Part shown: positions 4,858 through 31,814 of the stretch, piece after piece
How the letters are laid out: each line of letters starts with the position of its first letter
Numbering within the stretch: position 1 is the stretch's first letter
Origin: Bacteroidetes bacterium GWF2_33_16
Lineage (GTDB): Bacteria; Bacteroidota; Bacteroidia; Bacteroidales; UBA12077
Assembly (NCBI GenBank): GCA_001768565.1
Contig: MEOE01000011.1
Location: 9,373-73,372, forward strand
Reading direction: 5' to 3'
DNA length: 64,000 nt
Notes under the pieces: model-generated
Told to the model about the DNA's origin: nothing
The model's database searches: none
The model's input: the letters and a program-made list of their open reading frames with translations, nothing else
Position numbers and translations under genes: made by a program

Positions 4858-5571
4858 ATGGAACATGAACAAAAAGTGGCTACTATGCCAAGAATAGGAG
4901 AAAAAGCTCCCGAATTTAAAGCCGTAACAACCCAGGGTGAAATTAATTTCCCATCCGATTATAAAGGAAGTTGGGTTATTTTGTTCAGTCACCCAGCCGA
5001 TTTTACACCAGTTTGTACATCTGAGTTTATGACATTTGCTTCGATGGAAAAACAATTTAATGAAGCAAATTGTAAACTTATAGGCCTTTCTGTTGATGGT
5101 TTATATAGCCATATAGCATGGTTACGTACTATTAAAGAGAAGATTGAATACAAGGGGATGAAAAATGTTGAAGTAACATTCCCATTAATCGAAGACATTA
5201 CAATGGAAGTTGCAATGAAGTATGGAATGATGATGCCAGGTGAAAGCAGTACAAAGGCTGTACGTGCTGTGTTTGTTATCGATCCAAATGGTATTATTAG
5301 AACAATCATCTATTACCCATTAAGTTTAGGTCGTAACTTTGATGAATTATACAGGGTGATTCTTGCATTGCAAACAGCTGATGAATTTAAGATTGCTACT
5401 CCAGCCGATTGGCGTCCAGGCGATGACGTAATTGTACCAACAGCAGGTTCATGTGGTGTTGCAAAAGAAAGAATGGAAAGCAAAGACGAAAATGTAAAAT
5501 GCTACGATTGGTTCTTCTGTACCAAAAAACTGGATAAGGATACAGTGTTAAAGAAAATCCTAAAAAAGTAA
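4858..5571 (+). CDS. Peroxiredoxin (Prx6-type, with C-terminal CxDWFFC motif)
   Basis: FSHPADFTPVCTSE peroxidatic motif; GRNFDE; ATPADW; CYDWFFC. Confidence 0.92.
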   Translation: MEHEQKVATMPRIGEKAPEFKAVTTQGEINFPSDYKGSWVILFSHPADFTPVCTSEFMTFASMEKQFNEANCKLIGLSVDGLYSHIAWLRTIKEKIEYKGMKNVEVTFPLIEDITMEVAMKYGMMMPGESSTKAVRAVFVIDPNGIIRTIIYYPLSLGRNFDELYRVILALQTADEFKIATPADWRPGDDVIVPTAGSCGVAKERMESKDENVKCYDWFFCTKKLDKDTVLKKILKK

Positions 5572-5605
5572 TAAATATATAGTCCTTACAAACAATTAGG
5601 AAAGG

Positions 5606-5703
5606 GTCATTGCGAACCTGCCTGCCGGCAGGCAGGCGCAGTGAAGCCTGTCTGCCGACAGGCAGGCAATCTTTAAAGACTGCTTCGTTTCACTCGCAGT
5701 GAC
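5606..5703. repeat. REP/MITE-like palindromic element (GTCATTGCGA...GCAATCT...AGACTGCTTCG...TCGCAGTGAC) carrying two nested 20-bp palindromes; probably also a bidirectional terminator
   Basis: Terminal inverted repeat GTCATTGCGA / TCGCAGTGAC, flanked by AAAGG and TTTTT between convergent genes; inserts at 5617-5636 and 5647-5666. Confidence 0.8.
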
Positions 5704-5713
5704 TTTTTAATTT

Positions 5714-6280
5714 TTATATCATACCCGGTTTTGTGCCCTTTTCTAATAGGTCCAGAACTTTAATAATTCTGTTAGCTTTTGTCTCTGGTCGCTTAGCCAT
5801 TAATATATAACCAATATACATATTTTGGTGGGAGGGAGATAGTTTACTAAAAAACAAACTTGCTTTTGGATTTTTAGCAAGTGCTTCTGTAAATTCATCT
5901 GGAATTTCAAATATTTCTTTTGATGAGTAGGCTTTATCCCAATTGCCATTTTTTTTAGCAATTTCAACCATTTTTAGTCCTGCTTTGGTCATTTTCTTTT
6001 CAATAATCATTTTTTCGACCCGTTTTTTATTAACTAAAGACCAGATACTGCTGCTTTTTCTAGGGGTGTATTTTTGCATATAAGTTTCGCTGTCGATACT
6101 TTTTACTAAGCTATCAATCCATCCAAAGCATAAAGCTTCTTCAACCGCATCGTTATAAGCTACAGACTGTTTTTTAGTATGCTTTTTAAAATAAATTAAC
6201 CAAATTTCTTTTGCTGTAAAGTGGTTTTCTTCAAGCCATTTACGCCAATCTTCACGTGTTTTGCAAAAAAGTGTTTCCAT
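5714..6280 (-). CDS. YdeI/OmpD-associated family protein
   Basis: WRKWLEENH, AVEEALCFGWIDS, TPRKSSSIWSLVNK, AKRPETKANRI. Confidence 0.88.
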   Translation of the reverse strand: METLFCKTREDWRKWLEENHFTAKEIWLIYFKKHTKKQSVAYNDAVEEALCFGWIDSLVKSIDSETYMQKYTPRKSSSIWSLVNKKRVEKMIIEKKMTKAGLKMVEIAKKNGNWDKAYSSKEIFEIPDEFTEALAKNPKASLFFSKLSPSHQNMYIGYILMAKRPETKANRIIKVLDLLEKGTKPGMI

Positions 6281-30473: not shown

Positions 30474-31814
30474 ATGTATGCAATAATAGATATCGAAACA
30501 ACTGGATTAAGTCCTGCAATTGAGAAAATAACTGAGATTGCCATTTACCTGCACGATGGGGAAAAAGTTACTGGTAGTTTTGTTACACTTATTAATCCTG
30601 AACGAAGAATTTCGCCATATATCACGCAATTAACCGGAATTACAAACCAAATGGTCGAAAATGCTCCTAAATTCTGGGAGATAGCTAAGGAAATTATAAC
30701 GCTTACCGAGAATAGAATTTTTGTAGCACATAATGCTTCTTTTGACTATAATTTTATTCGAAGCGAATTTAAAAGCTTGGGATATGATTTCTCACGTGAT
30801 CGTCTTTGTACTGTTAAGCTAAGTAGAAAGATTATTCCGGGATTTAAATCGTATAGTTTAGGAAATCTTTGTAATTCGCTAAATATAGTGGTTAATAATC
30901 GCCATAGAGCTTCGGGTGATGCATTAGCTACTACAAAATTATTTGAAATATTACTCGAAAAAGATAGAACGCTTGGCCAGAAATCAAATTCGAAATTTTA
31001 CAATATTGAAGCTTCAAAAATAGCCGGTTTGCCCGAAGAAACAGGTGTTTACTATTTTTATAATCAACAGGGTGATATAATCTATATTGGTAAAAGCAAA
31101 GACATTCGTACCAGAGTGTTTAGCCACTTTCGCAATGAGAATACAACAAAATCGATTAAAATGGCCGACGAAATTTTTGATATTTCATACGAGTTAACTG
31201 GTAGTGAGTTGGTTGCATTACTTTTGGAATCGAACGAAATAAAAGTACATAAACCTAAATATAACCGGCGCCAAAGAAGAACAATGAATCACTCCGGTAT
31301 TTTTAAACGGATTGATGAGTTTGGATATATTAACTTTATTGTTGAAGGGATCAAAAACGAGGTTCCATTAGTTGCTTTTAATTCTGCTAAAGAAGCAAAA
31401 GAAAGGTTGTATAATTTAACAGAGAAATATCATCTTTGTCAGAAATTATGTGGTTTGTACGAAGCCTCGGGTTCGTGTTTTTTTTATCAGATAAAAAAAT
31501 GTAAGGGAGCTTGTGTTCAGGAAGAAGCAGTAGTGTTATACAATAATCGCGCGCAAAAAATGCTTGAAGAACTTTGCCTTTCCTGGAAAAACTTTATTGT
31601 TATTGATAAGGGACGAAATGAAAACGAGCGAGCTATAATTAAAGTATCAAACGGAAGCTATATTGGATTTGGATATGCTGATCTGGATTTTATTAATCAA
31701 AACATTGAAGATTTAACAGAAGTAATTAAAAAATACCCCGACAATAAAGATATTCAACAAATAATTAAAACCTACCTGAGACAGCACAATGTGGAAAAGT
31801 TGATTAAGTTTTAA
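30474..31814 (+). CDS. DEDDh 3'-5' exonuclease (DNA Pol III epsilon-like) fused to a GIY-YIG (UvrC-like) nuclease
   Basis: DIETTG, AHNASFD, HRASGDA; GVYYFY...IYIGKS..IRTRV..H; ALLLESNEIK..KPKYN. Confidence 0.9.
   Translation: MYAIIDIETTGLSPAIEKITEIAIYLHDGEKVTGSFVTLINPERRISPYITQLTGITNQMVENAPKFWEIAKEIITLTENRIFVAHNASFDYNFIRSEFKSLGYDFSRDRLCTVKLSRKIIPGFKSYSLGNLCNSLNIVVNNRHRASGDALATTKLFEILLEKDRTLGQKSNSKFYNIEASKIAGLPEETGVYYFYNQQGDIIYIGKSKDIRTRVFSHFRNENTTKSIKMADEIFDISYELTGSELVALLLESNEIKVHKPKYNRRQRRTMNHSGIFKRIDEFGYINFIVEGIKNEVPLVAFNSAKEAKERLYNLTEKYHLCQKLCGLYEASGSCFFYQIKKCKGACVQEEAVVLYNNRAQKMLEELCLSWKNFIVIDKGRNENERAIIKVSNGSYIGFGYADLDFINQNIEDLTEVIKKYPDNKDIQQIIKTYLRQHNVEKLIKF

Follow-up and report, generated by a model that had tools for sequence, protein, structure and literature searches.

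A 20-nt palindromic sequence that occurs twice in a composite repeat of the window (the whole stretch of 64,000 nucleotides analysed here) may well be a hairpin micro-element mobilised in trans, for which small GIY-YIG nucleases of an Ssn-like kind are the best candidate partners. We put the probability of this statement as a whole at about 0.5, with higher confidence in the mobility and lower confidence in the enzyme. The 20-mer is a discrete unit whose presence is polymorphic; it recurs at the same kinds of site, leaves no target duplication, shows covariation, occurs across phyla and is spatially linked to GIY-YIG genes. It appears to rank among the smallest known mobile DNA elements.

The genome of the window, G000, comprises 4.33 Mb in 36 contigs, with 32.5% G+C. 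The parts of the composite and its neighbours are as follows, read from the window letters unless another basis is given.

4858 to 5571, plus strand: flanking gene for a 1-Cys peroxiredoxin (AhpC/TSA), by ORF and homology
5606 to 5616, plus strand: left host unit, 5' part GTCATTGCGAA (GTCA head and 5' strand of the stem, up to site 1)
5617 to 5636, no strand assigned: 20-mer copy 1, the perfect palindrome CCTGCCTGCCGGCAGGCAGG, at site 1 (between GAA and C), by letters and pattern search
5637 to 5646, plus strand: left host unit, loop remainder CGCAGTGAAG
5647 to 5666, plus strand: 20-mer copy 2, the oriented variant CCTGTCTGCCGACAGGCAGG (hairpin CCTGTC-TGCC-GACAGG followed by CAGG), at site 2 (between GAAG and CAATCT), by letters and pattern search
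5667 to 5672, plus strand: left host unit, 3' strand of the stem, CAATCT
5673 to 5676, no strand assigned: TTAA spacer separating the two inverted host units
5677 to 5703, minus strand: right host unit, uninterrupted, reading GTCACTGCGAGTGAAACGAAGCAGTCT on the minus strand
5704 to 5715, plus strand: T-rich tract TTTTTAATTTTT 3' of the composite hairpin, by letters and fold
5714 to 6280, minus strand: flanking gene for a YdeI/OmdA-family protein, convergent with the peroxiredoxin gene, by ORF and homology

A preliminary description of this DNA had recognised two 20-mers within a larger element, and both the letters and a pattern search bear this out: a degenerate form of the 20-mer, allowing up to two mismatches, has just these two matches in the 64-kb window and none in 100 dinucleotide shuffles. 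With both copies removed, the element reads GTCATTGCGAA-CGCAGTGAAG-CAATCT (5606-5616, 5637-5646 and 5667-5672), followed by TTAA (5673-5676) and AGACTGCTTCGTTTCACTCGCAGTGAC (5677-5703). The same description took the emptied element to be self-complementary, which is correct for its outer and inner parts. The outer 10 nt of the arms form nine Watson-Crick pairs and one G-T pair, and nine of ten positions pair in the inner 10 nt (GAAGCAATCT and AGACTGCTTC). The middle 7 nt of the arms, however, are unpaired, and the element is therefore an inverted doublet of two related 27-nt units rather than one perfect palindrome. The inserts do fall, as first claimed, between a purine and C (A and C at one site, G and C at the other), with a boundary ambiguity of 1 nt per site and no real duplication. 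The right unit has an identical empty copy at G000:C5:3444. For the GTCA head of the left unit, G000 has 35 occurrences, of which about 28 lie in a repeat context by manual reading.

Folded as DNA, the composite reaches -29.7 kcal/mol (z -5.75 against shuffles) and as RNA -60.5 kcal/mol (z -8.24), and in the minimum-energy fold copy 1 of the 20-mer pairs with copy 2. The T-rich tract could be a terminator tail of the peroxiredoxin gene; a simple terminator scan did not call the composite despite the T-run, and an Rfam search of 5300-6000 gave only sub-threshold, microRNA-like hairpin matches. The window locus itself provides no empty site, because its intergenic region is not conserved in 22 relatives, which have ordinary terminator hairpins there instead. 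Contigs from four independent public runs show only the filled form across 5200-6100, with no joint and no left-out letters, and since contigs drop rare variants this is uninformative on excision.

Elsewhere the 20-mer is separable from its surroundings and polymorphic in its presence, as had been predicted. At G000:C13:226283 a copy lies in unique intergenic DNA, and the aligned orthologous site is empty in three sister species, G020, G008 and the more distant G023, with a net difference of 21 nt. A second case is a tRNA-Arg locus in G000 and G020, where a displaced promoter and tRNA 5' half have their D arm split by exactly 20 nt. The split displaced half is followed by a small GIY-YIG gene, a second promoter and the intact tRNA, which has no insert.

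G000:C23:25880-26320 (L187 1450-1890), and in G020 within L205, strand not given: mini GIY-YIG cassette at tRNA-Arg(TCG)

G000 and G020 share this cassette, G008 has a truncated form of it, and G005, G023 and G049 lack it. Another displaced tRNA 5' half, in L232 (G008:C351) and L233 (G020:C16), holds two 20-mers, one between the acceptor stem and the D stem and the other at the junction of D loop and D stem; in L233 this split half stands directly upstream of a GIY-YIG gene, and L232 stops at a contig end.

Within the host units of the genus, the two insertion sites are filled singly in some copies and together in others. Site 1 is filled in L235 and L239-L246, and it is filled with site 2 empty in L239-L243 and in L246, the sister-species copy of the window doublet, where CGCAGTGAAG runs directly into CAATCT. 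The converse state, with site 1 empty and site 2 filled, is found in L249 and L251, and both sites are filled in the window and in L245. Short tandem repeats likewise have one unit split by the 20-mer beside intact neighbours (C15; L180, L166). In DNA from public runs elsewhere, similarity to the window ends at the 20-mer borders, with loose ends at 5617, 5638, 5647 and 5667. No empty host unit could be aligned at C13:17693 or C32:20023, since the entire repeat block there is specific to the lineage. Because the same variant occupies the same site in several loci and species, filled composites evidently spread as units too, and independent insertions are fewer than copies.

The host units of G000 form a family with the pattern GTCA-NNNN-GA[AG] before site 1 and C-NNNNN-GAAG after it; their stems vary (for example TTGC/GCAA, CACT/AGTG and GGCT/AGCC) and their loop is similar. 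Among the GTCA-headed units of this genome, site 1 (after GA[AG]) is filled by a 20-mer in five and empty in 11, which contradicts the possibility, raised at the outset, that no empty host elements exist. Site 2 (after GAAG) holds a GC hairpin of 19-20 nt in three units. The insertion-site preference suggested earlier is thus borne out by recurrent positions in the host unit. We also observed that the loop TGAG-CNNGTC-GAAG stays similar while the stems differ completely among the G000 copies, which points to recognition of the loop or of hairpin shape and not of stem sequence. A hammerhead-like reading of the host unit was dropped, as its core motifs come in the wrong order.

Other small GC hairpins occupy the same loop position: TCCCGA-N4-8-TCGGGA (sometimes nested in itself), GGCCTG-NAAA-CAGGCC and GCC-AAAT-GGC. 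They were seen at G000:C2:8003-8095, C7:50701, C13:392562-392700 and C23:49636-49706, and in L095, L103, L104 and L164.

For the anatomy of the 20-mer we assembled 160 non-redundant instances from G000, its relatives and the scan of species genomes described below. Positions 9 and 16 are C/G in 87, T/A in 42, A/T in eight, T/G in four and mismatched in 19; the 57 instances changed on both sides are complementary in 50, and a variant with an A/T swap at positions 7 and 18 was also seen. These variants pair only in a shifted register, with a CCTG tail, a CCTGNC stem, a GGCA loop and a GN'CAGG stem, and the full palindrome does not fit them. The working form would accordingly be asymmetric, a 4-nt CCTG tail followed by a 6-bp stem and a GGCA loop (on the other strand, the hairpin and then CAGG), and such asymmetry points to recognition of a single strand. 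As the TA and AT variants are spread over many phyla, they represent a small number of lineages and not numerous events.

A purine precedes the insert in 121 of the 160 instances and a pyrimidine follows it in 103. As the preliminary description had proposed from the window alone, there is no clear target duplication: none exceeds re-paired controls in the 160 instances, apart from a 1-nt excess (54 versus 31). Net insert size is 20 nt in the tRNA and at site 2, and 21 nt at C13:226283 and at site 1 of L245. Complementarity between the -1 and +1 flanks differs weakly from the control (56/160 versus 46). Several contexts recur, among them GTCA-headed hairpins (13/160, with a control mean of about 4) and the junction of the D loop with the 3' D stem in tRNA fragments (4/160, and L288 in addition). 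The 20-mer is nested in itself in L083 and L092 by a strict test and in L064, L134, L097 and L110 by eye, and 12 of the 160 instances have tandem repeats of period 6-8 no more than 45 nt away, versus none in shuffles. The proposal that the 20-mer targets palindromic repeats proved too narrow, given that it also entered unique intergenic DNA, pieces of tRNA genes, short tandem repeats and itself, and that emptied sites fold like controls. A general rule of insertion at loop-stem junctions was likewise dropped, since in a naive fold 111 of 160 emptied sites are enclosed by base pairs compared with 225 of 314 displaced controls.

These observations bear on the idea that the 20-mer is not mobile in itself and is an interchangeable hairpin stem module, exchanged by recombination or gene conversion and kept for transcript stability or termination. 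Such a module would account for the other small hairpins held at the same place in the host loop (GCC-AAAT-GGC, TCCCGA..TCGGGA and GGCCTG-NAAA-CAGGCC), for identical variants at identical sites in many copies, and for the T-run 3' of the window composite. It fits poorly, however, with an insertion into unique DNA that has no counterpart in three sister species, with 20-mers in the D arms of different tRNAs in different phyla, and with flanks that are unrelated to one another throughout the 160 instances. Moreover, a T-run follows 19 of 160 copies compared with 15 of 160 at a control position, a rate so near the control that the 20-mer is not an intrinsic terminator as such. We regard this explanation as quite unlikely.

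The distribution of the 20-mer is far wider than one genus. It is present in 22 of 24 sampled genomes of the same genus and, outside the family but within the order, in 5 of 16; G000 has nine exact sites in 4.3 Mb. In a scan of 185,579 genomes, one per species, at least 121 stretches matched. The matches listed have unrelated flanks and represent Bacteroidota, Patescibacteria, Omnitrophota, Planctomycetota, several proteobacterial classes, Chloroflexota, Nitrospirota, Bacillota and Actinomycetota. In five genomes of other phyla there are 3 to 16 sites each, 42 in total, and one of these genomes has 12 sites in 0.6 Mb. Among viral contigs, the perfect 20-mer was found in 40 stretches, of which L288 bears a cassette of a tRNA half and a nuclease together with the 20-mer. 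We also saw, in viral L280 and L254, a tRNA-Met with the 20-mer at the position of the variable loop; ARAGORN still calls a tRNA of 92 nt in L280, where the 20-mer may therefore be tolerated as a long variable arm.

That such a pattern might reflect chance or an assembly or sequencing artefact has practically no probability in our view. Many of the matches listed are indeed in metagenome-assembled genomes, but others are in named isolates, and two species share the 20-mer at their orthologous tRNA-Arg cassettes. The contigs from independent runs are identical across the window element, a reversed-pattern control gave no match in all 41 genomes searched, and by our own estimate about 0.5 perfect 20-mers would be expected by chance in the 596-Gb species collection. 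A literature search for the exact 20-mer found no paper containing the sequence, and searches on GIY-YIG with tRNA genes, palindromes or repeats, and on Ssn with hairpins, found no description of a pairing between the 20-mer and a nuclease.

The link to small GIY-YIG genes is seen most directly upstream of their starts. A 20-mer lies 13-29 nt upstream of a small GIY-YIG start in G000:C23, G019:C155, G002:C149, G024:C13, G033:C217 (twice), G053:C6 and G057:C1, and all eight copies are perfect palindromes. Host units, too, are clustered to the left and right of a GIY-YIG gene of 100 residues, G000:C2:8202-8429. By a manual cross-match (not a computed tally), the genus has about 86 host-unit matches, and for 7 of them a small GIY-YIG gene is no more than 500 nt away. 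The suggestion that GIY-YIG genes would be found flanked by the same palindrome is favoured by this linkage, by the eight upstream copies and by the C2 host units alike. Nevertheless, a GIY-YIG gene lies within 200 nt of only 4 of the 121 cross-phylum loci listed and within 400 nt of 1 of 40 viral loci, and is adjacent to 2 of the 42 sites in the five genomes of other phyla. As most copies are far from any nuclease gene, the enzyme is a candidate that we infer. In the 16 genomes of other families, the 20-mer and a nuclease of the C23 type occur together in four, the 20-mer alone in one, the nuclease alone in three and neither in eight; the one-sided Fisher p is about 0.08 (calculated by hand, for genomes that are kin and not independent), and this co-occurrence is only suggestive. 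G018, G021 and G023 have 11-15 strand matches of the 20-mer, yet only distant homologues of the C23-type nuclease. NCBIfam assigned the small GIY-YIG nucleases to no specific family, and their best solved relative is the UPF0213 protein BH0048 (E 4e-4). A GIY-YIG domain (E 1.5e-8) is also found in the window itself, in a 446-residue ORF at 30474-31814 on the plus strand, a large multi-domain protein unlike the small nuclease type.

One may ask whether some other enzyme, or a host route of replication or repair such as capture of hairpin oligonucleotides at nicks or template switching, moves the 20-mer, with the GIY-YIG linkage reflecting shared tolerant junk DNA and broken tRNA copies. The distance of most copies from GIY-YIG genes would be natural on that account, as would a net insert of either 20 or 21 nt with small target changes. 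Five viral records with 20-mer copies, one of them rated 96% complete, encode neither a GIY-YIG nor a Y1 enzyme, which also favours it. On the other hand, it does not readily explain why several lineages have a perfect palindrome upstream of GIY-YIG starts at a fixed distance of 13-29 nt, and the constancy of the sequence across phyla argues for a sequence-specific protein partner. We consider this route unlikely.

The preliminary description had suggested a hairpin-recognising enzyme acting in trans, for example a HUH/Y1 enzyme of the RAYT or IS200-like sort thought to move REPs and REPINs. There are grounds for a Y1 enzyme: the 20-mer has a 5' tetranucleotide and hairpin architecture and no target duplication, and G000 has two intact Y1 genes and one truncated. 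The truncated gene, RAYT-like and located at G000:C13:393279-393608 (L003 1393-1725, minus strand), ends after the HUH motif, its 3' part having been replaced by hairpin repeats, and it sits within a cluster of host units. The genus also has intact homologues, 187-200 residues long. One homologue, in L222 (G007:C1:1265450-1266540), has a composite repeat some 200 nt long on either side, with both copies in the same orientation; this repeat holds, in the loop of another hairpin, a 20-mer variant identical to window 5647-5666. The half-motif CCTGCCTG or CAGGCAGG is present at 2 of 10 loci with homologues of the truncated gene, and the full 20-mer is established in L222, the sole one inspected.

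The remaining evidence runs against a Y1 enzyme. The two intact IS200/RAYT-like genes, L001 (G000:C23:386755-387200) and L002 (G000:C26:78000-78500), have other, unrelated repeats at their flanks, a separate family for each gene: the CCCAGCCTAAAGGCTGGGG type for one and the GAGACGCAATGCATTGCGTCTC type for the other. The host motif is present at none of the 10 loci with homologues of the truncated gene, and Y1/RAYT was rejected on this count as the partner of the host units. The five viral records mentioned above have copies and no Y1 gene. In PMC6006769, REPs are defined by a 5' GT[AG]G tetranucleotide at the hairpin foot, whereas the host units here have a GTCA head and the 20-mer a CCTG tail. 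That a Y1 enzyme moves the 20-mer is therefore, in our judgement, very unlikely.

The likeness to the REP/REPIN-RAYT system is nonetheless real as far as it goes: both consist of hairpin repeats arranged as inverted doublets, clustered round a small nuclease or transposase gene and lacking target duplications, and both are thought to act on single strands. They differ, beyond the tetranucleotide and the flanking repeats of the Y1 genes, in the low copy number of the 20-mer (the nine exact sites of G000) and in the mobile unit, which is here a 20-nt insert inside a repeat and not the doublet. MITEs have terminal inverted repeats and a target-site duplication and measure tens to hundreds of bp; the 20-mer has no duplication and is 20 nt long. 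The GC-rich palindromic clusters of fungal mitochondrial DNA are also short, spread within a genome and nest, but they are organellar, reportedly have target duplications and are not known to be one sequence common across phyla.

The closest described kind is that of the small dispersed repeats (SDRs) of heterocyst-forming cyanobacteria, reportedly described by Elhai and colleagues in 2008, while the closest biochemical precedent is the Ssn/SRM system. Like the 20-mer, SDRs are said to be dispersed repeats of some 20-27 nt that behave as insertions and nest in themselves or other repeats and among short tandem repeats; clean insertion with empty and filled sites, and nesting in itself, in other repeats and in short tandem repeats, are what we find for the 20-mer. 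Both are reported as hairpins backed by compensatory changes. Their sequences are not known to be related, and SDRs are reportedly confined to one cyanobacterial group, whereas the 20-mer is identical across many phyla and in viral contigs and is spatially linked to small GIY-YIG genes and tRNA fragments.

According to the main text of PMC11893778 (Chenal et al. 2025), Ssn nucleases bind NTS/SRM hairpins, cut single-stranded DNA only and are encoded by genes flanked by repeats. The system described there, a small single-domain GIY-YIG gene flanked by hairpin repeats with an orienting conserved 5' head, resembles ours, in which repeats flank small single-domain GIY-YIG genes both as the C2 host units and as the eight upstream 20-mers. 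The NTS starts CGTCATTCC and ends GGAATC in that text; the host units start GTCATTGC or GTCATTCC and end GCAATC or GGAATC. The specificity of Ssn for single-stranded DNA, as set out in the same text, is the sort of activity that the 20-mer would need. The published SRM pattern (PMC11893778, Methods section 17) is absent from the window element and has one match in G000, where mononucleotide shuffles give 0-5, and because this is the chance level we treat the host units as SRM-like and do not class them as SRMs. Applied to the 160 emptied 20-mer sites, the pattern found one true SRM (L126). The main text of PMC11893778 contains no mention of Bacteroidota, tRNA or nesting, and no mobility of a 20-nt module is described in it; neither the 20-mer nor the host head was found in 12 of its 14 supplement files.

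Returning to the reading that we prefer, the 20-mer would be a discrete, non-autonomous element, copied to new sites in trans and without target duplication. In the window it would have entered the loop of one unit of the inverted doublet at two preferred positions, each just after GAA, and the filled composite would also propagate as a unit. The most likely driver is a small single-domain GIY-YIG nuclease family of a kind akin to Ssn. We suggest that the nuclease nicks exposed single-stranded DNA and that host repair or ligation may then fix the hairpin there, and that nuclease cassettes or phages could ferry the pair of hairpin and nuclease between phyla. GIY-YIG enzymes hydrolyse DNA and none is known to rejoin it, so the joining step must come from elsewhere. 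A more specific form of this proposal, which is possible but doubtful, is that the 20-mer might be the cognate single-strand hairpin of a tRNA-parasitising clade of mini GIY-YIG nucleases, spread in trans into any exposed single-stranded DNA, phage genomes included. If so, a 20-nt mobile element lacking a transposase would be carried by cassettes among more than 10 phyla, an undescribed mode of nuclease-driven micro-transposition.

If the 20-mer moves at all, it bears on the lower size limit of mobile DNA; one invariant sequence would be common to many phyla, which would require a partner that is conserved and sequence-specific, and some vehicle to spread it horizontally. Its movement would also help to account for the nested hairpin debris, rich in GC, that is seen between the genes of Bacteroidota, candidate-phyla bacteria and phages. 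The involvement of an Ssn-type nuclease, if true, would give these recently described, single-strand-specific enzymes a genome-shaping role beyond Neisseria and would provide a defined pair of hairpin and nuclease for single-stranded-DNA tools. For annotation, composites of the window type are best read as layers of separate inserts. The alternative GC hairpin modules of the host loop also recur close to 20-mers in other phyla, and a further hairpin, TCCGCC-N4-GGCGGA, recurs close to them in L078, L088, L093, L094 and L178.
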